Source: a virus
IMG/VR virus record: IMGVR_UViG_3300032242_001655
Coordinates: 32,079 to 96,078 of that record
Length of the DNA: 64,000 nt
Strand: one strand, 5' to 3'
The position numbers were made by a program, and so were the translations under genes. Below, piece by piece: positions 5,556 to 53,652 of the stretch. Below the pieces are notes generated by a model, which made no database searches, had not been told where the DNA came from, and saw nothing but the letters and a program-made list of their open reading frames with translations. Numbering within the stretch: position 1 is the stretch's first letter; each line of letters begins with the position of its first letter.

Positions 5556-6353
5556 ATGAAACCAAAAACTTACCGCTCTATTTTTGTGAGTGATGTACAT
5601 CTGGGTACAAAGGACTGTAAGGCAGAGGCTCTTAACAATTTCCTTAAACACAATAGTTGCGAAACGCTGTATCTTGTAGGGGATATAATAGATGCGTGGA
5701 AAATTCAACAAAATAAACTTAGGTGGAAGCAGAGCCACACTAATGTGGTTAGGCGGGTTCTTGGTCATGCTAAACGTGGTACTAGGGTTGTTTACGTGGC
5801 TGGCAATCACGATGAATTCCTGCGTCCGATGATACCGTATGGTGTGTCATTCGGACAAGTTGAAATCTGTAATCAAATAGAACACATAGGTGCTGACGGC
5901 AAGCACTATCTTGTAACACACGGAGATTTATTTGACGGTATCACTCGATTGGCTCCGTGGCTAAGTTTTTTAGGAGACAAAGCATATGATTTTATCCTTG
6001 GAGTCAATAGTAGGTTTAATTGGATCCGTCATCGTCTTGGTTTTGGCTACTGGAGCCTTAGCAAGTATCTTAAACACAGAGTCAAAAAAGCAATAGATTT
6101 CATGTTCAAGTTTGAAAGAACTATAACAGACTATTGTAAGAAACGAGGATTCGACGGAGTAATCTGCGGACACATCCACCACGCTGAGATTAAATATATA
6201 GATAATATTGTGTATATGAATGACGGCGATTGGGTTGAGTCTATGACGGCTCTTGTAGAGCATCACGACGGTCGCTGGGAAATAGTAACATGGACTCAAG
6301 AAAGTGACCAAAACAATTCTGATAATAACGGACAACCTGCCGGAGCAAATTAA
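5556..6353 (+). CDS. plcP: PlcP-type phospholipase C (metallophosphoesterase, LpxH/YbbF-like family)
   Basis: SDVHLG, LVGDIID, GNHDE, HGDLFD, GHIHH and GDWVES motifs; adjacent to a GT4 gene as in plcP-agt loci. Confidence 0.75.
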   Translation: MKPKTYRSIFVSDVHLGTKDCKAEALNNFLKHNSCETLYLVGDIIDAWKIQQNKLRWKQSHTNVVRRVLGHAKRGTRVVYVAGNHDEFLRPMIPYGVSFGQVEICNQIEHIGADGKHYLVTHGDLFDGITRLAPWLSFLGDKAYDFILGVNSRFNWIRHRLGFGYWSLSKYLKHRVKKAIDFMFKFERTITDYCKKRGFDGVICGHIHHAEIKYIDNIVYMNDGDWVESMTALVEHHDGRWEIVTWTQESDQNNSDNNGQPAGAN

Positions 6354-7302
6354 TGGCGTTGTCACAACTTACAAAAACATTGAGAAATGTGCGCTTCTGG
6401 ACGATTATAATGTTGTGGTGCTTCATCCCGGGTGGTTCCGCTACATTAATTGTCCTGGCTACAACGAAGTCAAGATTGCCTATCCCAGGAACTTGGGCAA
6501 GAAGATTAAGGAGATCAATCCGGATTATATCCACATCGCCACAGAAGGTCCTCTTGGTCTGTGGGCTCGAAAATATCTTTCATTGGCTGGTATTAGGCAC
6601 AATACCGCTTATCACACTAAGTTTCCTGAAGGGCTGAAAAAACTATTTGGCATACCAGAATCATGGACTTGGCGCTTTGTTCGTTGGTTCCATAAACACT
6701 CAGGTAAAGTTTTAACTACAACAGACTCAATGGTACGAGAATTACAAGCACACGGATTTGACGGAGAAGTTATTCCTTGGACACGAGGTGTTGACCGTGA
6801 GATATTTTCTCCCGATTTAAGGCAAGATGTTCCTGCCAAATACCTTCTGTGTGTAAGCCGTGTTAGTAAAGAAAAGAATTTAGAAAAGTTTCTTGAAATG
6901 GACTACCCCGGATATCTTAAAATAATGGTAGGTGATGGTCCTATGTTAGAAAAGTATAAAAAACAATATCCGGATGTATACTTTGCTGGATTTAAAACTG
7001 GGCTATCATTGGCTCGATACTATGCTAACGCAGAAGTATTTGTATTTCCATCACAATGGGAAACATTTGGCATTGTGATGGCAGAAGCCATGGCCTGCGG
7101 CACTCCAGTTGCCGCATACCCTGTACAAGGACCGGAGGATGTTATTGATGAATGCAAGACAGGTTGTATGCGTGATAACTTAAAGGACGCTGTAGATGCT
7201 TGCCTAAAATTAGATAGAACTGAAGTTGAACGGTACAGCCATCGATGGTCGTGGGAACAAGCATGGGAAATTTTTAGGGACAACTTAGTGAGCGCAAAAT
7301 GA
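6304..7302 (+). CDS. agt: GT4 glycosyltransferase, Agt-like glycolipid synthase
   Basis: QINGVV, IHIATEGPLG, YHTKFPE, RWFH, SRVSKEKN and ETFGIVMAEAMACGTPV. Confidence 0.75.
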   Translation: MTKTILIITDNLPEQINGVVTTYKNIEKCALLDDYNVVVLHPGWFRYINCPGYNEVKIAYPRNLGKKIKEINPDYIHIATEGPLGLWARKYLSLAGIRHNTAYHTKFPEGLKKLFGIPESWTWRFVRWFHKHSGKVLTTTDSMVRELQAHGFDGEVIPWTRGVDREIFSPDLRQDVPAKYLLCVSRVSKEKNLEKFLEMDYPGYLKIMVGDGPMLEKYKKQYPDVYFAGFKTGLSLARYYANAEVFVFPSQWETFGIVMAEAMACGTPVAAYPVQGPEDVIDECKTGCMRDNLKDAVDACLKLDRTEVERYSHRWSWEQAWEIFRDNLVSAK

Positions 7303-8192
7303 ATAAGAAGATATGGATATTACATCATGCCACAAATATAAATGGCTATGAAAACACACACCTAAAACAAACACTACTCGATTCGGGATTTGATGTTCAA
7401 GTCCTTGAACCTAAATACTTTGATATTATTGTGAGTCGTAGTAATACACGAAGCATTAGATATAAAGGCGAGCGTATTGACATGCCTAACCTTGTTTTAA
7501 GTAGAACAGGATCGGGCACTAACTACTTTACACTCGCTCTAATGCGTCAAATTGAAAAGTTTAACATACCTGTGATCAATGACGCAGACAGCATATCAAT
7601 TGTTAGTGATAAGTTGATGACCAGTCAGGTACTGACCCGAGAAGGTTTACCTATCCCCAAGACTATATTGGTCAACGGAGATGTTGATACAGATTTAGTC
7701 GAACGTGAAATAGGATTTCCCTGTGTTGTAAAAGCCACATCGGGTAGTAAAGGTAAGACTGTACACTTATGTAAAAGTAAAAAAGAATTTCAGACACTAA
7801 TGGATCTGCTGACTTCTATTGCTCTTAAGAAAGTTTTAATCATACAAGAGTTTATTGATGCGGCGCCGGGCACAGATCTACGTGTGTGGGTCATAGGTGG
7901 CAAAACTGTAGCCGCAATGAAACGTACAGGGCCAGATGGAGACTTCCGTGCTAATATTAGTCAAGGTGGAACAGCGACACAGTTTGAAATTACTGAAGAA
8001 GTAGATTACGTTGCTCGTGAAACTGCTCGTGCTCTTGGCCTACAGATTGCGGGTATAGATTTACTATTTGGCAAAGATGGAGTATTAGTCTGCGAAGCCA
8101 ATTCCAGTCCAGGATTTGAAGGAATGGATAAATTCTGTGGTGCTGATATGAGCCAAAAGATAGCAGAGTATATCAAATTCAAATTAGGGTAA
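7299..8192 (+). CDS. rimK: RimK-family ATP-grasp alpha-L-glutamate ligase
   Basis: DK..T...L, GSKGKTV, IIQEFI, DLRVWVIGG, DFRANISQGG and CEANSSPGFEG. Confidence 0.85.
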   Translation: MNKKIWILHHATNINGYENTHLKQTLLDSGFDVQVLEPKYFDIIVSRSNTRSIRYKGERIDMPNLVLSRTGSGTNYFTLALMRQIEKFNIPVINDADSISIVSDKLMTSQVLTREGLPIPKTILVNGDVDTDLVEREIGFPCVVKATSGSKGKTVHLCKSKKEFQTLMDLLTSIALKKVLIIQEFIDAAPGTDLRVWVIGGKTVAAMKRTGPDGDFRANISQGGTATQFEITEEVDYVARETARALGLQIAGIDLLFGKDGVLVCEANSSPGFEGMDKFCGADMSQKIAEYIKFKLG

Positions 8193-8248
8193 TCTACCTG
8201 TAATCTACAAAAATATAAATAAATGTACCAACTTAATAGGAGTTTCAT

Positions 8249-8305
8249 ATGAACTTATTAGCAGTATACGGACCCGGAGACGACTCCGAGGACGACGAAG
8301 AGTAA
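8249..8305 (+). CDS. 18-aa acidic mini-peptide MNLLAVYGPGDDSEDDEE
   Basis: AGGAG RBS 6 nt upstream; TATAAATA at 8214-8221; not in the ORF track. Confidence 0.55.
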   Translation: MNLLAVYGPGDDSEDDEE

Positions 8306-8350
8306 ACCGGCCACACCGATAGAGTGGATGCTGGAACTCGTAACCAGCAG

Positions 8351-8371
8351 TAGGGCTTAGGCCCTATTTTT
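8351..8371 (+). terminator. intrinsic terminator
   Basis: TAGGGC-ttag-GCCCTA-TTTTT. Confidence 0.75.
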
Positions 8372-8400
8372 ACGACTAAATATTATAAAGTAGGTACATA

Positions 8401-9045
8401 ATGAAAAAGACCAAAATTGCCATTTTCCTCAATCATCCAGAATGTTCCGCACACTGCGCTGTTGGTATGTATGAAGCACTTCATCCAGATTACCATGTAA
8501 AATTTTTCAGTAAAGATCAATTCAAATCCAAAATATTTAGAGAAGCAGATGTTGTTGCCTTTCCAGGCGGCATAGGTGATAGTGATACATTTGACAAACT
8601 GGTAAGACCTAATATGGGATATGTAATAGATCATGTCGATCGTGGTGGAAGATATTTAGGAATCTGTATGGGCGCATATTGGGCAGGGCATCACTACTTT
8701 GATATACTTGATGGCATTAGAGCAGAGCAGTATATCAAACGCCCAGGAGCAGATGTTAGACGTAGTTTTGGAACTGTGTCTAATATAACTTGGAACGGTC
8801 AACAAGAAAACATGTACTTCTACGATGGCTGTAGTCTATTGGGCAACACAAGAAACAGCGAAGTAGTTGCTACCTATCCAAACGGAGATGCTATGGCTGT
8901 AATACAGAATCGTATAGGTGTAATAGGATGTCATCCAGAAGCCCTACCTAGTTGGTATGATAAGAAGCATCTAAAACCTCACTGGCACGAGGCTCGTCAT
9001 CATAAATTACTACACAACTTTGTTGATCAACTCATGCTACAATAA
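8401..9045 (+). CDS. class I glutamine amidotransferase-like protein (BPL_N type)
   Basis: FPGGIGD, YLGICMGAY (nucleophile Cys) and GCHPE. Confidence 0.8.
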   Translation: MKKTKIAIFLNHPECSAHCAVGMYEALHPDYHVKFFSKDQFKSKIFREADVVAFPGGIGDSDTFDKLVRPNMGYVIDHVDRGGRYLGICMGAYWAGHHYFDILDGIRAEQYIKRPGADVRRSFGTVSNITWNGQQENMYFYDGCSLLGNTRNSEVVATYPNGDAMAVIQNRIGVIGCHPEALPSWYDKKHLKPHWHEARHHKLLHNFVDQLMLQ

Positions 9046-9143
9046 ATTTTTCCTATTGTAGTCATAAAAATAATTATTGTAAAAACCTATTGATTTTGAG
9101 TTTTAATAGGATATATAATATATGTACACAGAAAGGAGACATC

Positions 9144-9608
9144 ATGTCCATAACATTAAAAAACTTAGAGGCCGCATTGGCCGGTGAGAGTCAGGCTCAC
9201 ATTAAATATCGCTACTTCGCACGTATTGCTCGTGAAGAAGGTTTTGAAGAAGTTGCCCGTCACTTCGAACATACTGCTGACCAGGAACTTAAACACGCCT
9301 GGGGTCATTTGGAACTACTCATTGGTACTCCAACTACTAAAGAATGTTTACAAAAAGCCATTGAAGGTGAAACTTATGAGTTCACTACAATGTACCCACA
9401 GTTTGAAGCAATTGCTATGAAGGAAGGCGAAGTAAAAGCCGCTGAAGAAGCAAGAGCACAGATCGCAGAATCAAAAGAACATGCCGCTGAATTTGCCGCT
9501 GTTCTTAAGAAAGCAGAAAAGCGTTTTGCCGCTTTGAGTAAGATCGAGCGCCGTCATGCTGAATCGTACCAGGCTAAACTGGATGCGGTGACATTTCCAG
9601 TAATTTAA
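9144..9608 (+). CDS. rbr: rubrerythrin (ferritin-like di-iron protein)
   Basis: NLEAALAGESQA, ELKHA, GETYEFTTMYP and EHA motifs; AAGGAG RBS. Confidence 0.92.
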   Translation: MSITLKNLEAALAGESQAHIKYRYFARIAREEGFEEVARHFEHTADQELKHAWGHLELLIGTPTTKECLQKAIEGETYEFTTMYPQFEAIAMKEGEVKAAEEARAQIAESKEHAAEFAAVLKKAEKRFAALSKIERRHAESYQAKLDAVTFPVI

Positions 9609-9618
9609 GGAGACTATT

Positions 9619-9747
9619 ATGGAATACGTATGTGTAGTTTGTGGACATGTCCACGATGAAGAAACAGAAGGCAAATGGGATGATCTACCAGAAGATTTCC
9701 TTTGCCCAGAATGTGGTTGCGGTAAAGAAGAATACGAAGCAATGTAA
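9619..9747 (+). CDS. rubredoxin (42 aa)
   Basis: MEYVCVVCGHVHDE...WDDLPEDFLCPECG; AAGGAG RBS; not in the ORF track. Confidence 0.9.
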   Translation: MEYVCVVCGHVHDEETEGKWDDLPEDFLCPECGCGKEEYEAM

Positions 9748-9754
9748 AATACGG

Positions 9755-9792
9755 CCCAGCCCTCTATCACTTAGTGATACGGCTGGGTTTTC
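9755..9792 (+). terminator. intrinsic terminator
   Basis: CCCAGC...TATCAC-tta-GTGATA...GCTGGG-TTTT. Confidence 0.6.
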
Positions 9793-9829
9793 TCTTGACT
9801 AATTAGTAATAAGTGTATATACTAAAAAG

Positions 9830-10966
9830 ATGAATAAAGAAGAATTTATAGATAGATTATTTCACTCTCGTGCTGTGTTTGTAGATTGGGACGACACTGA
9901 ATATGTTGTCAGCGACCTAATGAGTCGAGCATGGAAAGAAAGACATGACACAGTCCAGTTAACTGAAACAGTTAACCATGTAGAATACTTTGTTGAATTG
10001 ATGCGAGCAGTATTAGGTGGAGGATATTTGATTCGAGGTACTAAATTGCCTGATTCAAAACCTACAGGTACATATTCATCTTGTACCAGTGGTAGTACAG
10101 GTCGTCCTAAACTAATTTCACACAACTTAGAAAACTTTATTGCTCCTAGTCTAGCAATGAGTTCTACAGAAGCAATGGACGAATCGAGTACATTTTTAGC
10201 ATATCTGCCTACCTCTACTAATGCTGTGTTCAGCGTAGGTATGTTGCCTGCGGCAATAACTGATGGCAGGTGTGTGTTTAAAAAGTTTAACCCATTTCAA
10301 ACAGTAAATGAAATACACAAATATCGCCCAACGCATACTACCTTACCTCCCGGAGTATATACTCCAACAAGCAAAACTAAAGAATGGAAGACAGCGGATC
10401 TTAGCAGTTTAAAATATGTATTAACGGGCAGTAATTTTACTGCTCGTGGCTTCTTTGAAGATATTAAAAGTAAAGGTGGTTGCCCATTTCATGGATACGG
10501 TACAACAGAAATGCCTGCTATTATGAACGCTTACCGAGGCAGTGAGCAACACCTTGGACATATTTGGTATCCAGGAGCAGAATGGAAAGAAGTAGATGGA
10601 GAACTTTGGTGCCGTTGGAATCATATGCCTTGGTGGCAAAGTGGAGACATGATAGAAGTAGATCCTATTCATGGTCCGAGAATCACAGGACGTAAAGATA
10701 ATCAATTTAAATATAGAGATCATAAAATAGTTCCCGAGAGTTATGAACTAACTGCTCGACAACATGAACTAGTAGTTGATGCTATGCTTAAACTAGAAAA
10801 GCATCTAGTGTTATATTATGAAGGAACAGCAAGTCCTGCGGAAGTAGAAGATCTGCTGTTACAACATAATTCTAAAGAAACAATGCCTAAGCAGTTTATT
10901 AAAGTAAATGCCCTACCTCGGTCTAATTTAGGAAAATTAGATCGTAAGGCTAAAATAGAAAGGTAA
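9830..10966 (+). CDS. adenylate-forming (AMP-binding, acyl-CoA synthetase-like) enzyme
   Basis: TSGSTGRPK, GYGTTE, SGD, GRKD and LPRSNLGKLDR. Confidence 0.88.
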   Translation: MNKEEFIDRLFHSRAVFVDWDDTEYVVSDLMSRAWKERHDTVQLTETVNHVEYFVELMRAVLGGGYLIRGTKLPDSKPTGTYSSCTSGSTGRPKLISHNLENFIAPSLAMSSTEAMDESSTFLAYLPTSTNAVFSVGMLPAAITDGRCVFKKFNPFQTVNEIHKYRPTHTTLPPGVYTPTSKTKEWKTADLSSLKYVLTGSNFTARGFFEDIKSKGGCPFHGYGTTEMPAIMNAYRGSEQHLGHIWYPGAEWKEVDGELWCRWNHMPWWQSGDMIEVDPIHGPRITGRKDNQFKYRDHKIVPESYELTARQHELVVDAMLKLEKHLVLYYEGTASPAEVEDLLLQHNSKETMPKQFIKVNALPRSNLGKLDRKAKIER

Positions 10967-10968
10967 TT

Positions 10969-11226
10969 ATGGGAAAAGGATCAAGACCAAGACCGTATAG
11001 TGTTAGCCAAGCACAATTTGGTAATAACTATGACACAATTTTTAGAAAGGAAAAAGAAATGCAAGTAAGAGTACCCGAACCAGGAAAGAAAATTGGAACC
11101 TGCGGCTGTGGCCGTAGCCCAACAGGCGACTGCTGTGGTTGGCATGGCTTGACTGAGGACCAATATAAAGCGACCCTTGAAAAATACATGACCAACGAGC
11201 AAGACACCAAAGGCAAATCGGTTTAA
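10969..11226 (+). CDS. CDGSH-like 2Fe-2S domain protein
   Basis: CGCGRSPTGDCCGWH, a variant of CxCxxS...CDGSH. Confidence 0.6.
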   Translation: MGKGSRPRPYSVSQAQFGNNYDTIFRKEKEMQVRVPEPGKKIGTCGCGRSPTGDCCGWHGLTEDQYKATLEKYMTNEQDTKGKSV

Positions 11227-12197
11227 TGAAACCAATTAAGGAAATCAAGTATTACGGTCCCGTACAAATAACTTGGATCCTTAATCAAGCATGTCCTAGT
11301 CATTGCTGGTATTGTCCTGATCACATACATCGTGGTCGCAATAACAGTTTTGATTGGGACATCTGTTCTAAGTTTTTAGATTTTCTTATAGCCAAATATC
11401 CACATGCAAACATATCGCTCAGTGGTGGTGAGCCCACAACTTGGCCTTACTTTGAACAGTTAATGGACAAAGTATTGGCAGAAGGTCGACGCATTACTGT
11501 ATGTGTAAATTCGAATCTAATTAGAACGAGAGATTGGTGGGGCCGGATGGCTCCTAAGTTGTCAGGTGTGAGTGCCAGTTATCATCCTGATGTTGTAAAG
11601 ACAGATGAAGAACGACAAGACTGGTTTGACAAATTAGACTTTGTTGCCTCACAGGCAGGAACTAATTTACGTATCATGATGGATCCTAAACATTGGGACC
11701 ATTGTGTAGAAGTTATAGAACGTTTAAGAAACAGAACAGATTTACTCTACGGAGTTGAACCTGTTAGATTATTAAACTACTTTGAAGGCTTTCATGTTGT
11801 TAACTATGATATCGACTATACACCTGAGCAGGATCGTAATTTAGGAAACATGAATTTTTTACCTGCTAAGATTAATCCTCCTGCCGCACAAAAGAAACAG
11901 TTTCAAGAACTTGTGGGCATTGTACATGAAGATGGTAGTAGGGCTCGATTAGAACATGTAGGTCCTCTTGTTCTAAACAAGATGAACAAGTTCAAAGGTT
12001 GGAAGTGTAATATAGGAATTGAAAGTCTGTACATTAGTCCAGATGGGCAGATTAAAAGAGGTAATTGTTTTGAAGGTGCTATAATTGGCAATGTGTTAGA
12101 ACCAGAGAAAATCATTTGGGCTAACGAAGCACTTGAATGTTCGTATGATATGTGCCACTGTTTAACTGATATTCGGATATCCAAATGGAGACCTTAA
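11226..12197 (+). CDS. radical SAM protein with a C-terminal SPASM/twitch-like Cys cluster
   Basis: CPSHCWYC (CxxxCxxC), SGGEPT, C..G...YISPDG...C...C..C.C. Confidence 0.9.
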   Translation: MKPIKEIKYYGPVQITWILNQACPSHCWYCPDHIHRGRNNSFDWDICSKFLDFLIAKYPHANISLSGGEPTTWPYFEQLMDKVLAEGRRITVCVNSNLIRTRDWWGRMAPKLSGVSASYHPDVVKTDEERQDWFDKLDFVASQAGTNLRIMMDPKHWDHCVEVIERLRNRTDLLYGVEPVRLLNYFEGFHVVNYDIDYTPEQDRNLGNMNFLPAKINPPAAQKKQFQELVGIVHEDGSRARLEHVGPLVLNKMNKFKGWKCNIGIESLYISPDGQIKRGNCFEGAIIGNVLEPEKIIWANEALECSYDMCHCLTDIRISKWRP

Positions 12198-32495: not shown

Positions 32496-32570
32496 GGTCT
32501 CAAAGTGTTCATGGACGCACACGAGCCTGTCACGCTCGAAGAAGGGGATCGTTACCCCTTGGGACCGCCA
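32496..32570 (+). tRNA. tRNA-Asp(GTC)
   Basis: Cloverleaf, loop CTGTCAC, non-canonical T-loop ATCGTTA, CCA. Confidence 0.85.
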
Positions 32571-32576
32571 AATTAT

Positions 32577-32651
32577 TCCCTAGTAGATCAGAGGTAGATC
32601 AGCGGACTGTTAATCCGTGTGTCGGTGGTTCGATCCCACCCTGGGGAGCCA
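32577..32651 (+). tRNA. tRNA-Asn(GTT)
   Basis: Cloverleaf, loop CTGTTAA, CCA. Confidence 0.92.
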
Positions 32652-32656
32652 AACAT

Positions 32657-32731
32657 GGGCTGTTAGTGATAATGGGAGCACGGGGGCTTTGCAAGCCTTA
32701 GGTGGGAGTTCGATCCTCCCACGGTCCACCA
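32657..32731 (+). tRNA. tRNA-Ala(TGC)
   Basis: Cloverleaf, G3.U70, CCA. Confidence 0.92.
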
Positions 32732-32736
32732 AGTTT

Positions 32737-32811
32737 GCCGAGGTAGCTCAGAGGAAGAGCAATGTGTTGATAACGCATAGGTCGAGATTTCAAAATTCTC
32801 CCTCGGTACCA
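32737..32811 (+). tRNA. tRNA-Ile(GAT)
   Basis: Cloverleaf, loop TTGATAA, CCA. Confidence 0.88.
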
Positions 32812-32815
32812 GTTT

Positions 32816-32892
32816 GGGACGGTAACTCAGTTGGCTAGAGTATCGGTCTTTTAAACCGAGAGTCGCGGGTTCGAATCCCGCTCGTCCTACCA
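32816..32892 (+). tRNA. tRNA-Lys(TTT)
   Basis: Cloverleaf, loop CTTTTAA, CCA. Confidence 0.93.
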
Positions 32893-32900
32893 ATGTTTGT

Positions 32901-32974
32901 TGGCTTATGGTGAAATGGTATCACAACGGATTTTGATTCCGTCGTTCTTGGTTCGATCCCAAGTAGGCCTGCCA
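32901..32974 (+). tRNA. tRNA-Gln(TTG)
   Basis: Cloverleaf, unpaired 1:72, loop TTTTGAT, CCA. Confidence 0.9.
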
Positions 32975-33118
32975 ATTAGTTAGAGTAAATGTATTTTCTA
33001 CCGTAGGATAAGATTCTAGAAATTCTTTAGAAGTAGTCCAAGAAGTTCTTGGAACATAGGAAGATTTGCTGAGATTATACAACATTTTGTATTCAGTATA
33101 GTCATCTTCAAATTTCAT
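32921..33118 (-). CDS. possible small antisense ORF within the tRNA array
   Basis: TAAATA-N5-ATG at its start; 3' end runs antisense into tRNA-Gln. Confidence 0.35.
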   Translation of the reverse strand: MKFEDDYTEYKMLYNLSKSSYVPRTSWTTSKEFLESYPTVENTFTLTNWQAYLGSNQERRNQNPL

Positions 33119-33130
33119 AATAATATTTAT

Positions 33131-33205
33131 GGTAATGTAGCATAATGGAAGTGCCCCGCCTTCATACGGCGTCCAGTGTAGGTTCGACTCCTACCATTAC
33201 CACCA
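33131..33205 (+). tRNA. tRNA(CAT), either elongator Met or Ile2
   Basis: Cloverleaf, paired 1:72, loop TTCATAC, CCA. Confidence 0.85.
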
Positions 33206-33206
33206 T

Positions 33207-33295
33207 GGAGGGTTATCTGGGCTGGGCCCAGCTCTGTCTTGAAAACAGAAGGTTCGCGAAAGCGGATAGAGTTCGATTCTACTAGCCCTCCTCCA
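33207..33295 (+). tRNA. tRNA-Ser(TGA), atypical 6-bp D-stem
   Basis: Loop CTTGAAA, long variable arm, CCA. Confidence 0.8.
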
Positions 33296-33315
33296 TATAT
33301 ACATTAAATATCCAG

Positions 33316-33927
33316 ATGCAATATTGGTTATTTTTCTGGGGCGGTACAGGTGGTGATGGACTTAGCAATCTGCTAGAACATGCTGACAATCTAGAACCCT
33401 GTGATGGAATAAAACGATGGCGTACTAGAAATACTCCATCAGGTAAGATTGCGTTCCATGGGCCTAGGTTTTCTAACGTACCATCACTGTTTAGAAATCA
33501 TCAAGGATTTGATATGAGCAAAATTCATTTGCTCAAGCACTATGTAGATTTAATAGAACAAGGAAAGAATACAGTTATTCCTGCACATCCGTGGCCTTAT
33601 AATGATTTTCTTTCTAAGTTTCCACAAAGAGATATCATTGAAAAAGATCAACACAAAATTCTGTTATACTCAAATGATATGGATAGAATAGTTACAGACT
33701 TTATAGATAAGAATCCTACTAGTGAAAAGGCCAAACAAGAATTAATTAGATCAATTGCTGGGAAAAATGTCCTTAAGGATTCGCCTAAATTAGGATATCA
33801 AACATACATTGATATGGATAAAGTTTGGAAAGATTGGGATTACCTAAATAACATCCTAACTGGTATAGGAATTAATTTAGATAGAGTGTATTATGAAGAA
33901 TACTTAAATGTATCAAAGAAAAGATAA
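33316..33927 (+). CDS. hypothetical protein (sulfotransferase/P-loop-like N-terminus)
   Basis: FWGGTGGDGLSNLL; ORF between tRNAs. Confidence 0.6.
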   Translation: MQYWLFFWGGTGGDGLSNLLEHADNLEPCDGIKRWRTRNTPSGKIAFHGPRFSNVPSLFRNHQGFDMSKIHLLKHYVDLIEQGKNTVIPAHPWPYNDFLSKFPQRDIIEKDQHKILLYSNDMDRIVTDFIDKNPTSEKAKQELIRSIAGKNVLKDSPKLGYQTYIDMDKVWKDWDYLNNILTGIGINLDRVYYEEYLNVSKKR

Positions 33928-33928
33928 A

Positions 33929-34018
33929 GGAGCGGTGGCCGAACGGTAAGGCAGTAGATTGCTAATCTATACAACGTGTTAAAGCGTTGACTGGGTTCGA
34001 CTCCCAGTCGCTCCGCCA
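33929..34018 (+). tRNA. tRNA-Ser(GCT)
   Basis: Class II cloverleaf, CCA. Confidence 0.92.
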
Positions 34019-34023
34019 AATTA

Positions 34024-34097
34024 GCCCTATTAGTACAATGGCAGTACAGCGGTTTTGTAATCCGTTGATGGCAGTTCGATTCTGTCATGGGGCACCA
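34024..34097 (+). tRNA. tRNA-Thr(TGT)
   Basis: Cloverleaf, loop TTTGTAA, CCA. Confidence 0.9.
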
Positions 34098-34101
34098 ATT
34101 T

Positions 34102-34175
34102 ACCTCGTTCGTCTAATGGTAGGGCCGCGCCTTTACACGGCGCAGACGGCAGTTCGATTCTGTCACGAGGTACCA
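34102..34175 (+). tRNA. tRNA-Val(TAC)
   Basis: Cloverleaf, loop TTTACAC, CCA. Confidence 0.9.
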
Positions 34176-34189
34176 TAGACTGTTTAGGT

Positions 34190-34264
34190 GTGACCTTAGT
34201 GTTAGCGGTTAGCACCACGGATTGTGATTCCGTTAGGATGGATTCGAATTCCATAGGTCACCCC
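34190..34264 (+). tRNA. tRNA-His(GTG)
   Basis: GTGACCT/AGGTCAC, C73, loop TTGTGAT; position -1 is T; CCA not fully encoded. Confidence 0.85.
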
Positions 34265-34289
34265 TGAGCAGTTTTGTAAATAGAATTAA

Positions 34290-34366
34290 CGGTGTGTAGC
34301 TCAGCCTGGTAGAGCTCTTGGTTTGGGACCAAGTGGTCGCATGTTCGAATCGTGTCACACCGACCA
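34290..34366 (+). tRNA. tRNA-Pro(TGG)
   Basis: Cloverleaf, loop TTTGGGA, CCA. Confidence 0.93.
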
Positions 34367-34380
34367 TATAAAGGAATATT

Positions 34381-34653
34381 ATGTCAAAAGTAAGAGCAAG
34401 CCATATTTTAGTCATGTCATTAAATGAAGCAGTTAACATCCATGAACAAATTTCAAATGGTGTTAGTTTTGAAACATTGGCTCAACAAAATAGTAAGTGC
34501 CCTAGCGGACGCAATGGCGGAGACCTAGGCGAGTTTGGACGCGGACAAATGGTTAAGCCATTTGAAGATGCCGCATTTGGGTTAAATGTAGGAAGTCTCA
34601 GTGACCCAATCAAAACACAATTTGGGTATCACCTCATCAAGCGTACTGCCTAA
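34381..34653 (+). CDS. ppiC: parvulin-type peptidyl-prolyl cis-trans isomerase
   Basis: RASHILV, SKCPSGRNGGDLGEFGRGQMVKPFE and TQFGYHLI. Confidence 0.95.
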   Translation: MSKVRASHILVMSLNEAVNIHEQISNGVSFETLAQQNSKCPSGRNGGDLGEFGRGQMVKPFEDAAFGLNVGSLSDPIKTQFGYHLIKRTA

Positions 34654-34654
34654 C

Positions 34655-35659
34655 ATGTTAAACTACACCTTACACGAAAACGGTTGGACGGTGTTGTTAG
34701 GTAACTTTGATTTTAAAAATACTACACAACAAGATGCAGATGAAATTGCTCGACTAGTTTCTACCAATGTAGCAGTTGTAGCACAGGGTAGTAATATTGA
34801 AAATATGACTCCAGAAGATCAGGTTCGGTTCTGCTCAATGATAGGTAACCTTGAAGAATATCATAATGACACAGCATGGGGTCGTGCTATTGCTCTAAGT
34901 ACTGATAACATCGGAAATAAGATCCAACGTGTTACAGGTGCGGCAAATGAAGAAGGACATCCTGGTTTATTTGGACATGACGAAGAATTAGATTGGCACA
35001 ATAATACTCCCTGGGACATGAGACGCAAGCCCGCTGTATTTTTAAAATCAATCAGCGGAGCAGAAGGTAGTAGAACAAGTTGGACTAACACACAGTTGGC
35101 TTACCGTGATCTTAAACTTGAAGACCCTGCATTTGTTCAAGAATTAGAAGAACAGAATTATCGTGTAGTTTGTGGTTGGCACAAAGAAGGTGGTCATACA
35201 ACAATGTATAACTACTGGCATGATCAGGGACATTTTCCAGATGAAGTAGAATCTGAAGAAACTGCTATGCCATTGGTCTTTACTAATGAAACAGGTTGTA
35301 AAGGATTTTTCTTACCATATCTACAAGCACATAGATTATTCGGCTTGACAAGAGAAGAAAGTTTGCCTATACTTAAACGAGTATGGGATTATTGCTTACA
35401 AGAAAAATACATTTATCATCATGATTGGCTACCCGGGGGTAGCGAGATAGTGTTTGCCGAGCAATGGCTATCTACACATAAGCGTTGGGAGTTTGATAAA
35501 ATGAAAACTCGTTTTATGGAAAGATCAGCAGTTGACTATGTAAACACTTCATGGTGGCCAGATGTAAAGAAAACATTTAGAAAACAGATAACAGACATAA
35601 TAAGACAGAATAATGTAGAGATGGCAGAGCGGCAAATGCAACGGATTGCAAATCCGTAA
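34655..35659 (+). CDS. TauD/TfdA-family Fe(II)/2OG dioxygenase-like protein
   Basis: ELDWHNN, GSRTSW, YHHDW...HKRW; 3' end overlaps tRNA-Cys. Confidence 0.7.
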   Translation: MLNYTLHENGWTVLLGNFDFKNTTQQDADEIARLVSTNVAVVAQGSNIENMTPEDQVRFCSMIGNLEEYHNDTAWGRAIALSTDNIGNKIQRVTGAANEEGHPGLFGHDEELDWHNNTPWDMRRKPAVFLKSISGAEGSRTSWTNTQLAYRDLKLEDPAFVQELEEQNYRVVCGWHKEGGHTTMYNYWHDQGHFPDEVESEETAMPLVFTNETGCKGFFLPYLQAHRLFGLTREESLPILKRVWDYCLQEKYIYHHDWLPGGSEIVFAEQWLSTHKRWEFDKMKTRFMERSAVDYVNTSWWPDVKKTFRKQITDIIRQNNVEMAERQMQRIANP

Positions 35660-35691
35660 AACCGTGGGTTCGAGTCCCACTCTCTATTCCA
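35615..35691 (+). tRNA. tRNA-Cys(GCA)
   Basis: GTAGAGA/TCTCTAT, U73, loop TTGCAAA, CCA. Confidence 0.9.
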
Positions 35692-35708
35692 GGTTAAATA
35701 TATGCGAT

Positions 35709-35782
35709 GCGGGATTAGTTTAATGGTAAAACGAGATCCTTCCAAGTTCAAGTCAGCGGTTCGATTCCGCTATCCCGCTCCA
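35709..35782 (+). tRNA. tRNA-Gly(TCC)
   Basis: Cloverleaf, U73, CCA; anticodon stem has two mismatches. Confidence 0.82.
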
Positions 35783-35796
35783 AGTTAAAGGTTATC

Positions 35797-36516
35797 ATGA
35801 ATATTGGATATTTTGGTCATAGTACAGTAGGTGACGATACTAATGGAAAAGAAGGGTCATTTATTATCGATGTTGCTAAGTTTTTTAATGCACAAATTGT
35901 AAATGTAGGAACTGGTCAAGGTTCTGAAGAACGTATTTTATTTGATCTTAAAAAATGCAGACACATAGATGTTGCTGTGATATTTCACAGCAGACCTCAG
36001 AGTTTGTTTATTCCTAATTGTAAAATGGATTTTAATATTTCTGAGGATCCAGATCGCAAAGCAGAGATACTTTGGAGTCAGGAATTGATTTTACAAATGA
36101 CTCCTCCTGCGGAAAACGAAGATCAGATGTATACAGAAAAATATAAAGAAAGTCTTCAATACAGAAAGAACTTTTCGTCTGTGTTCAAAACTCCTCAGGA
36201 TTTTGCCACATGTCTAAAGAATTTTAAAAAATATCTTTATCATCAGGATCTGCAACAAAACAGGTTCGAAGGTGCACTAACATTGATAGATCAATACTGT
36301 GCGGCGAGAGTTCCTATTGTAGTCCATTCAATTGATAAAAAACGACTACCTGCCTGGTGGACTGGGTTTAAGTCTGGAGTACTAGGCGAGGAATTGAATG
36401 TAATTGAAAATCAATATAGACAAACTAGTCAACCAAATTGTCTAAACCCAGAAGGACATAAACGAATGGGTGCTGAGGTAATTAGACTTATTCTTGAACA
36501 GATGGAAAAAAGATAA
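35797..36516 (+). CDS. hypothetical protein (SGNH-like N-terminus)
   Basis: YFGHS...NVGTGQGS...LNPEGH. Confidence 0.6.
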   Translation: MNIGYFGHSTVGDDTNGKEGSFIIDVAKFFNAQIVNVGTGQGSEERILFDLKKCRHIDVAVIFHSRPQSLFIPNCKMDFNISEDPDRKAEILWSQELILQMTPPAENEDQMYTEKYKESLQYRKNFSSVFKTPQDFATCLKNFKKYLYHQDLQQNRFEGALTLIDQYCAARVPIVVHSIDKKRLPAWWTGFKSGVLGEELNVIENQYRQTSQPNCLNPEGHKRMGAEVIRLILEQMEKR

Positions 36517-36525
36517 CTAGTTGAT

Positions 36526-36614
36526 GCAGGTCGTGGCAGAGTGGTCAAATGCGCCCGGTCGTAAATCGGGTGACCTTTAAGGTCTACGGAGGTTCGAATC
36601 CCCCATCTGCTCCA
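36526..36614 (+). tRNA. degenerate class II tRNA, Tyr(GTA)-like
   Basis: Loop TCGTAAA (C33), long variable arm, irregular acceptor/T stems, CCA. Confidence 0.55.
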
Positions 36615-36619
36615 ATTTT

Positions 36620-36694
36620 CGGTCTTTGGTGAAATGGATATCATTCTTGTCTTCGAAACAAGAGGTGTGGGTTCGATTCCTGCAAGACCGGCCA
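36620..36694 (+). tRNA. tRNA-Arg(TCG)
   Basis: Cloverleaf, loop CTTCGAA, CCA. Confidence 0.9.
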
Positions 36695-36695
36695 A

Positions 36696-36998
36696 TTATA
36701 CAGTATAAGTTGTAGAAGTGGTAATAATATTGTTTTCTAAATTATATTGGTACCTCATAATTTGTTCAGGTTGAGATAATCTCCAATTTTTAAAATCATC
36801 TAAAGATGCTTGATCTTCAAAAATACGAGTTTCAATTGCTGTGTTTACATCAGGATTTTCAATATTCCATCCAATGGCTTTAGGCCCATTATAATTCTTA
36901 ATATTAGATATCATAGTTTGCACAACATCAGGGTGTACGTCTCTAAACCAAACAACATTCTCTGGTTTTCGAGAAATAGTTTTTTCAACAATCGCCAT
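36696..36998 (-). CDS. hypothetical protein
   Basis: GGAG RBS and TATAAATA upstream on the minus strand. Confidence 0.65.
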   Translation of the reverse strand: MAIVEKTISRKPENVVWFRDVHPDVVQTMISNIKNYNGPKAIGWNIENPDVNTAIETRIFEDQASLDDFKNWRLSQPEQIMRYQYNLENNIITTSTTYTV

Positions 36999-37040
36999 AC
37001 AGTTCTCCAAGTAATTAATTATTATTTATATACTTTTTTT

Positions 37041-37116
37041 GCCAATTTAGCAAATGTGGTCATTGCGGCGGACTGAAAATCCGTGGAACCTGGTTCGATC
37101 CCGGGAGTTGGCACCA
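37041..37116 (+). tRNA. tRNA-Phe(GAA)
   Basis: Cloverleaf, loop CTGAAAA, CCA. Confidence 0.92.
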
Positions 37117-37138
37117 TGTTGTATTTTTGCTACATGTA

Positions 37139-37167
37139 TTGACACAGGCAATAAATGCCTGTATAAT
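37139..37167 (+). promoter_or_regulatory. consensus sigma70 promoter with a palindromic spacer
   Basis: TTGACA-N17-TATAAT; ACAGGCA-ataaa-TGCCTGT. Confidence 0.85.
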
Positions 37168-37181
37168 TGATATTAAGTTAG

Positions 37182-37255
37182 CGCGGGATAGAGTAGTGGT
37201 TACTCATGGGTCTCATAAGCCCACCAGGTAGGTTCGATTCCTGCTCCCGCAACCA
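37182..37255 (+). tRNA. initiator tRNA-fMet(CAT)
   Basis: C1:A72 mismatch, loop CTCATAA, GGG/CCC in the anticodon stem, CCA. Confidence 0.85.
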
Positions 37256-37258
37256 ACT

Positions 37259-37334
37259 GTCCCGTTCGTCTAGAGGCCTAGGACATCACCCTTTCACGGT
37301 GAGTACACCAGTTCGAATCTGGTACGGGACGCCA
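37259..37334 (+). tRNA. tRNA-Glu(TTC)
   Basis: Cloverleaf, loop CTTTCAC, CCA. Confidence 0.93.
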
Positions 37335-37502
37335 TTAGTTGAGAGCATTCACGAGGTATTGTGTATGGACGCATACACTAGGCGGGCTGGTCGGGCCATC
37401 GATAAGTCCTAATATAACTCGGGCAATGGCTTATGAGAGGATCGCGCCCTCACTCAGAAATACGCTCAGCCTGTAAGGCTGTCGAGTGTTTTCAACTAAT
37501 GG
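37332..37502 (+). ncRNA. candidate structured RNA with a 19-bp closing stem
   Basis: CCATTAGTTGAGAGCATTC pairs GAGTGTTTTCAACTAATGG (with G.U); internal hairpins. Confidence 0.5.
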
Positions 37503-37517
37503 TAAGTAATGTATTAC

Positions 37518-37594
37518 GCCCCGGTGACGGAATTGGTATACGTGTTGGTCTTAGAAGCCAAATTTTAGGAGTTCGAGTCTCCTCTGGGGCACCA
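37518..37594 (+). tRNA. tRNA-Leu(TAG), short variable loop
   Basis: Leu-type D-loop, loop CTTAGAA, A73, CCA. Confidence 0.88.
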
Positions 37595-37595
37595 A

Positions 37596-37669
37596 GTCTC
37601 TTTAGTATAATGGCAGTACTGCGGTCTCCAAAACCGTTAGTGGGGGTTCGAGTCCCTCAGGGGACGCCA
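37596..37669 (+). tRNA. tRNA-Trp(CCA)
   Basis: Cloverleaf, loop CTCCAAA, G73, CCA. Confidence 0.92.
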
Positions 37670-41694: not shown

Positions 41695-41769
41695 CTGGCC
41701 ATAGTTCAACGGATAGAACAATCGCCTTCTAAGCAATCAATCCAGGTTCGATTCCTGGTGGCTGGACCA
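41695..41769 (+). tRNA. tRNA-Arg(TCT)
   Basis: Cloverleaf, loop CTTCTAA, CCA. Confidence 0.9.
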
Positions 41770-53556: not shown

Positions 53557-53652
53557 GTGGCTGTGAGTGGAATTGGAAGACCTCTGCCTAGGCAGGATGG
53601 GGCAAAGACATAGTCATTTGCTTTTGTAGGTTCGAAACCTACCAGCCATACC
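53557..53652 (+). ncRNA. tRNA-Leu-like RNA lacking an anticodon loop
   Basis: GTGGCTG/CAGCCAT-A-CC, Leu-type D-loop, perfect T-arm; anticodon arm is the palindrome CTGCCTAGGCAG; TGcTATAAT upstream. Confidence 0.65.

Follow-up and report, generated by a model that had tools for sequence, protein, structure and literature searches.

Organization of the locus

A 64,000-nt stretch (the window), which forms part of a 96-kb phage record of IMG/VR (IMGVR_UViG_3300032242_001655; CheckV completeness estimate 11), carries a run of four same-strand genes without an internal terminator, encoding a metallophosphoesterase, a GT4 glycosyltransferase, a RimK-family ATP-grasp ligase and an 18-codon open reading frame (ORF), here called the mini-ORF, whose relation to the ligase is the subject of this work (Table 1). 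The rimK gene starts within the stop codon of the GT4 gene, the two overlapping as ATGA (7299-7302), and is separated from the mini-ORF by a spacer of 56 nt. A conserved two-hairpin RNA element begins immediately after the mini-ORF stop codon and is followed by an intrinsic terminator, which closes the transcription unit of rimK and the mini-ORF. When the region was compared with GenBank phages by blastn, no match was found.

The initial annotation had described a RimK-family gene directly followed by an 18-codon ORF with an AGGAG ribosome-binding site and a terminator of its own, and then a class I glutamine amidotransferase-like protein with a Cys-His-Glu triad. All of these features could be located: the ligase is recognized by Pfam RimK and Rimk_N and by TIGR00768, the ORF and its ribosome-binding site are present in the sequence, a hairpin and T-run lie behind them, and residues Cys89, His178 and Glu180 of the amidotransferase-like protein are invariant in 31 homologues.

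Table 1. Features of the rimK locus in the window, with mini-ORF orthologues and copies of the RNA element in related loci
Feature	Sequence	Position	Strand	Details
Calcineurin-like metallophosphoesterase (LpxH/PlcP-like)	window	5556-6353	+	Pfam Metallophos 1e-10; LpxH matches weak, below cut-off
GT4 glycosyltransferase (Agt-like)	window	6304-7302	+	Pfam Glycos_transf_1 6e-22 and Glyco_transf_4
RimK-family ATP-grasp alpha-L-glutamate ligase, 297 aa	window	7299-8192	+	Pfam RimK 6e-47, Rimk_N 3e-11
Shine-Dalgarno AGGAG of the mini-ORF	window	8238-8242	+	6 nt before ATG
Mini-ORF, 18 codons, MNLLAVYGPGDDSEDDEE	window	8249-8305	+	ATG 8249, TAA 8303-8305
Conserved two-hairpin RNA element	window	8306-8349	+	P1 8311-8314/8324-8327; P2 8329-8334/8344-8349; covariance model R1
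Intrinsic terminator, hairpin and T-run	window	8349-8372	+	8 pairs, loop UUAG
Stand-alone class I glutamine-amidotransferase-like protein (BPL_N family)	window	8401-9045	+	Cys89-His178-Glu180 triad
Mini-ORF orthologue, MNLMLVNIGPDDEEDEE	L052	1065-1118		rimK 88% identical
Mini-ORF orthologue, MNKLAVYGPDDTSDDEEDAE	L061	1827-1889		rimK 75% identical
Element with terminator	window	8306-8372		
Element with terminator	L005	5224-5290		
Element with terminator	L052	1122-1190		
Element with terminator	L061	1897-1965		
Element with terminator	17 more places			

Conservation of the mini-ORF

The peptide encoded by the mini-ORF has a net charge of -7 and a C-terminal Glu. A filter for acidic tails (ORFs of at least 10 codons with at least five acidic residues among the last eight) retained the mini-ORF alone in the six frames of the whole 96-kb record, and the mini-ORF is therefore more than chance. 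Related loci were fetched by means of a ligase profile (80 metagenome loci and 61 genome loci). In two of them, belonging to lake phages (L052 and L061), the mini-ORF is conserved between rimK and the two-hairpin/terminator cassette, with an AAGGAG at unchanged spacing and with the ATG and the reading frame retained; the flanks have diverged. Comparison of the window with L061 by eye showed six synonymous and three non-synonymous codon changes in the mini-ORF. Contigs of other lake samples carry, immediately 5' of the two-hairpin element, ORFs whose products end in DDSEEE and DDSDE just before the stop codon. The mini-ORF form escapes gene callers, and the 20-residue orthologue is not found in a collection of 15 billion proteins.

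The initial annotation also pointed to an upstream TATAAATA (8214-8221) as a promoter of the mini-ORF. This motif occurs five times in the window against 8.1 copies expected, being no commoner than chance. Neither L052 nor L061 conserves it, and at its position no sigma-70-like site was called; a separate promoter for the mini-ORF is unsupported.

Longer acidic partners and their linkage to rimK

An acidic ORF of 37-53 residues abuts rimK on its upstream side in 31 further loci. These proteins fall into two forms, one (types B and B2) with an NxFNPFxW start and an (L/D)P(E/Q)DFD centre, and the other (type C) reading MSIFDDMxKF...DIFDGDD. The stop codon of the partner overlaps the ATG of rimK as GAATGA or TAATG, which is a signature of translational coupling. 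Glu is the C-terminal residue in 34/34 partners, though the filter also admitted Asp, and 30 of the 34 have Ala, Thr or Ser in the position before it. A profile of types B and B2 collected 84 clusters from a set of 5.8 billion proteins; all 84 end in Glu, all are unnamed and none belongs to a Pfam family. Codon differences between partners amount to 215 synonymous versus 189 non-synonymous in frame, and to 51/355 and 31/385 in the shifted frames, an in-frame excess of synonymous differences that supports the reading frame. The linkage also holds in the reverse direction, since all seven IMG/VR loci (7/7) retrieved by the acidic-protein profile alone carry rimK immediately downstream. The reality of these genes, their conservation, their linkage and coupling to rimK and their invariant terminal Glu are thus matters of observation.

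The partners gave no match in Pfam, PHROG or Atlas, and no description of them appeared in the literature searched. They are predicted to be mostly disordered and contain neither Cys nor Lys, and the longer ones have no terminator behind them. In a quick rimK tree the partners cluster by clade (B 14/17, B2 12/13 and C 3/3). The acidic-tail filter retained nothing in the 46 related rimK loci that lack a partner, nor did it find an acidic-tailed ORF beside rimK in 61 cyanophage, cyanobacterial and gut-bacterial loci, the sole match in the latter set being an ORF on the minus strand of one cyanophage locus, over 1 kb away from rimK. An acidic partner is likewise missing from the rimK loci of phages Mosig, Melnitz and YerA41. 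From these comparisons, and with the odds judged about even, the mini-ORF would be a real, translated gene and the shortest of a set of small acidic, largely disordered cognate partners of RimK.

A 760-residue 'tetratricopeptide repeat protein' (P0208) of a Planctomycetota metagenome-assembled genome clusters with the 37-residue type C partner, and its length equals that of the upstream cyclase/tetratricopeptide repeat protein, the partner and RimK put together. It may represent a read-through fusion, or else an artefact of assembly or gene calling on a phage contig that was binned into that genome. On the other side of rimK, the 3' gene begins with MR(M/I)(N/T)ELI in several relatives (L052 1203-1982, L065 3507-4289 and L066 4413-5354).

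Identity of the ligase

The ligase scores above the family cut-off of the NCBIfam model rimK_fam (TIGR00768; 215 bits versus 143) and under the equivalog cut-offs of E. coli RimK (NF007764; 171 bits versus 331), LysX (158 versus 276), CofF (TIGR04443; 96.5 versus 300) and MptN. The nearest solved structures are those of RimK from Pseudomonas (1e-46) and E. coli (1e-45), with LysX/ArgX at 1e-22 to 1e-24, and this proximity to RimK and distance from LysX/ArgX would make a RimK-type addition of alpha-linked Glu the most economical mechanism. Around 1750 homologues were found at E <= 1e-30; lake metagenomes contributed many that are 73-99% identical. Outside the phage clade the nearest relatives are the RimK proteins of cyanophages and picocyanobacteria, named 'ribosomal protein S6 glutaminyl transferase' (40-48% identical; the nearest cellular homologues, which are picocyanobacterial, at 41-48%), which differ in that no acidic Glu-ended small ORF lies beside their genes.

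Most close homologues bear the JGI name 'gamma-F420-2:alpha-L-glutamate ligase'. Published lists of auxiliary metabolic genes of lake phages include cofF as a methane-metabolism gene, and the 'cofF' genes of large freshwater phages probably belong to the same gene family as the ligase described here. Identity with CofF was rejected on the score given above. The failing CofF score, together with the presence of a Glu-ended protein partner, favours a peptide acceptor over coenzyme F420, and the CofF naming of these phage ligases is probably a systematic mis-annotation that feeds the lists of methane genes.

The two-hairpin RNA element and terminator

The terminator hairpin (8349-8368), with its eight pairs followed by the T-run, folds at -26.4 kcal/mol (z = -2.9), and was not listed by a simple terminator scanner. 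The sequence of its stem has changed in L061 and L005 yet still pairs. For the element in front of it, a covariance model (R1) yielded 21 copies in related loci. Changes on both sides occur in 6 of its 10 pairs and 92.7% of the cells are paired, versus 23-41% in slid controls, a covariation that supports both hairpins. The element has no Rfam family, the match to uxuA being sub-threshold only, and a scan of IMG/VR for its exact pattern returned one true locus and one chance match. Its start invariably falls at the stop codon of the ORF before it or overlaps that codon; this ORF may be the mini-ORF, a gene for a 104-residue secreted protein or a GT4 gene, and a phosphoesterase gene follows the element. 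At the DNA level the element is conserved better than the mini-ORF, and in four lake metagenomes the contig depth shows a spike at the element. In this group of phages, element and terminator stand where gene modules end; the element might serve as a terminator cassette, as a recombination joint or to stabilise RNA.

Neighbouring genes

The metallophosphoesterase is the first gene of the co-oriented run and provides context, lying outside the ligase-partner pair. It adjoins rimK in most related loci, and the metallophosphoesterase-GT4 pair (5556-7302) is the most constant neighbour of rimK across them, with varying gene order. The pair resembles the PlcP-Agt lipid-remodelling pair of phosphate-starved bacteria. 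Just 3' of the locus (9090-12197) lie genes for a rubrerythrin, a rubredoxin, an AMP-binding enzyme, a Cys-rich 85-residue protein and a radical SAM enzyme, a run that may constitute a separate modification or biosynthetic module. Elsewhere in the window a circularly permuted (two-piece) tmRNA encoded by the phage (3081-3409; tag ANDEQFALAA) scores as the betaproteobacterial type, which hints at the identity of the host. The window also holds 23 tRNA genes that cover most amino acids (32496-37669, 41695-41769 and 53557-53652); a further segment (33207-33291) is just over the Rfam threshold for tRNA-Sec and was not called by ARAGORN.

A candidate acceptor for the phage ligase

The 18-codon ORF is proposed to encode a cognate partner for the RimK-family ligase of these large freshwater phages, likely serving as its acceptor, a proposal drawn from sequence comparison for which the chances appear evenly balanced. 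A small acidic protein that always ends in Glu is a likely dedicated target of such a ligase. In the window, rimK and the mini-ORF would be transcribed together into an RNA that ends at the hairpin/terminator cassette, and in the sister phages the 37-53-residue partner would be made from a gene directly upstream, in translational coupling with rimK. The ligase would then bind the acidic tail, take the invariant C-terminal Glu as acceptor and add alpha-linked glutamates at the expense of ATP, as RimK does on bS6, so as to yield a polyanionic peptide. The assignment of the partner as acceptor is inferred, and so are the type of linkage, the length of the tail and the biological role.

This arrangement shares with the RimK-bS6 (RpsF) systems of E. 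coli and Pseudomonas (RimABK) a RimK-family ATP-grasp ligase and a proposed acceptor in the form of an acidic Glu-ended tail. It differs from them in that the partner is a dedicated disordered protein of 17-53 residues, encoded by the phage beside the ligase and often coupled to it; this adjacent partner is itself not bS6, and the bS6 family (PF01250) gave no match in the 96-kb record. Unlike the Pseudomonas RimABK system, there is no RimA or RimB in that record: the retropepsin-like RimB family (PF05618) gave no match in it, the record being a fragment, and none was seen in the related loci surveyed. C-terminal poly-alpha-glutamylation has so far been limited to RpsF, according to a paper of 2025 (PMC11957791).

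Several observations weigh against the partner-acceptor proposal. No partner lies within ~3.5 kb of rimK in 39 of the 73 loci with adequate flanks, among them the basal clade and close relatives of the window. On the rimK phylogeny, which is a quick tree only, the basal clade of 12 rows contains zero partners, and the three mini forms fall in a clade of 11 rows that also contains six partner-less loci. In one contig the end of rimK is fused directly to the two-hairpin element without a mini-ORF, and the presence of the mini-ORF thus varies among close relatives. This contig and the partner-less loci indicate that the ligase can manage without an adjacent partner; such genomes either carry the partner gene at another place or have a ligase that acts on something else, for instance host bS6. 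The homology of the 18-residue form to the longer forms is not demonstrable. Finally, where the genes overlap as GAATGA, the start of rimK limits to some extent which codon can end the partner, a constraint that does not apply to the TAATG and non-overlapping cases.

The initial annotation had viewed the mini-peptide as a mimic of the bS6 tail, acting as a primer, as a decoy or as the precursor of a ribosomally synthesized and post-translationally modified peptide (RiPP). The idea of a peptide of the phage's own, acidic and Glu-ended, has held and now extends to the longer partners; the RiPP version is unlikely, and primer and decoy are not separable from sequence alone. A more specific form of the primer idea, which appears improbable as it stands, would make the acidic proteins dedicated primers for long poly-alpha-glutamate tails. 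The aromatic N-terminus (NIFNPFxWF) might hold the polyanion at the membrane, where it would replace the surface charge lost when the PlcP/Agt-like pair converts phospholipids to glycolipids during phosphate-limited infection; alternatively, the free polyanion might mimic nucleic acid and act against DNA- or RNA-binding proteins of the host.

Alternative explanations

The acidic proteins might act as decoys or regulators that mimic the bS6 tail and fill the acceptor site of RimK, whether that of the phage or that of the host, tuning or blocking bS6 glutamylation with no productive extension. The same linkage and the same invariant terminal Glu would be expected in that case, half of the rimK loci lack a partner, as would fit an accessory modulator, and the ligase is closest to the bS6-modifying RimK. 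However, translational coupling gives roughly stoichiometric amounts, which are more typical of a substrate or a subunit, and it is difficult to see why a phage would encode a pure inhibitor of its own enzyme. The 96-kb record, as noted, has no bS6 gene. On balance a decoy seems unlikely.

The mini-ORF, with a mere 18 codons and a stop codon immediately 5' of a structured element and terminator, could also be non-functional, either as a decaying remnant or as an Asp/Glu-rich leader peptide controlling the hairpins and terminator that follow. The natural variant without the mini-ORF and the better conservation of the element DNA would agree with this. Nevertheless, the element also follows unrelated ORFs (the GT4 gene and the gene for the 104-residue protein) and is therefore not tied to a leader, and the longer partners have no terminator after them. 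The ORF, for its part, stays with rimK while the downstream gene changes, and it retains its ribosome-binding site, its frame and its acidic Glu end through many substitutions, so that either version of a non-functional ORF is rather improbable.

A third possibility is a carrier resembling LysW, in which the ligase would link the gamma-carboxyl of the terminal Glu in the partner to an amine or amino acid and a gamma-glutamyl hydrolase such as the amidotransferase-like protein could release the product. LysW is likewise a small, acidic, Glu-ended protein (its end being of the EDWGE type) paired with a RimK-family ligase (LysX or ArgX) that acts on the terminal Glu, the window ligase does reach 158 bits on the LysX model, and the class I amidotransferase fold includes gamma-glutamyl peptidases. 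That score lies below the cut-off of 276 bits, though, and the similarity to LysX/ArgX structures in the PDB is far weaker than that to RimK. The partners have neither Cys nor the globular zinc-ribbon domain, and the genes around rimK in the related loci are the phosphoesterase and GT4 genes instead of downstream pathway enzymes such as LysZ/Y/J/K, with no kinase, reductase or aminotransferase gene travelling with rimK. The amidotransferase-like gene, moreover, is unlinked to rimK (see below). The LysW/LysX carrier class was rejected on the ligase score and on the partner without Cys or zinc ribbon, and a mechanism of this kind is very improbable.

The initial annotation combined the three genes into a full triad, with the ligase as writer, the mini-peptide as substrate and the 8401-9045 protein as eraser of the glutamate tail. 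The latter protein matches BPL_N (7e-12) and, weakly, GATase in Pfam, and belongs to the mainly viral BPL_N family. Its AlphaFold2 model (predicted local distance difference test score 93) has a class I amidotransferase fold, with the nucleophile-elbow Cys and H-x-E pair of that class, for which Foldseek returned Pdx2/HisH-type glutaminases (7e-11, template modelling score 0.67) and also a gamma-glutamyl peptidase. The adjacency of the three genes in the window, the intact and invariant Cys-His-Glu residues and the presence of a homologue near rimK (within 3.5 kb) in 8 of 81 related loci would be in keeping with an eraser. Yet the gene stands behind the terminator as a separate transcription unit, L052 and L061 carry other genes in its position, and the occurrence of its homologues near rimK does not track the partner. 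None of the 36 loci that hold amidotransferase homologues has rimK within 4 kb (several hold the phosphoesterase-GT4 pair). RimK makes alpha links, whereas enzymes with the fold of the 8401-9045 protein act on gamma-amides, those of glutamine or of gamma-glutamyl groups. The eraser already known for RimK is an aspartic protease, RimB (PMC11957791). Of the triad, the pairing of ligase and acidic peptide is upheld by comparative genomics and the eraser role is not supported; the complete triad is accordingly a poor prospect, and the amidotransferase-like gene, lying in a variable region, is a neighbour without relation to the pair.

Macrocyclisation of the peptide by the ligase in the manner of microviridins, with ester or amide bonds formed from side chains, is scarcely credible: a small peptide does stand beside an ATP-grasp enzyme and an ATP-grasp peptide maturase model is weakly matched (4e-8, 33 bits versus a cut-off of 350), but the partners lack Lys, a conserved Ser/Thr-Asp/Glu core and any division into leader and core, the enzyme is a true member of the RimK family, and the microviridin/omega-ester RiPP class was rejected.

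Implications

The rimK gene and its acidic partner form a real and unusual gene pair on the RimK writer-acceptor theme, beside which the amidotransferase-like gene is a bystander. The pairing of writer and acceptor is supported, its core idea strongly so by comparative genomics. The protein partner and the failed CofF model count against the reading of 'cofF' as a methane gene in lake phages. As a test system it would be very simple, consisting of one 18-mer peptide and one enzyme. If the partner-acceptor proposal is true, a phage ligase with its own encoded mini-acceptor would represent a second substrate class of C-terminal poly-alpha-glutamylation, and if these proteins are indeed primers, they would be the first besides bS6 known to be extended in this way.

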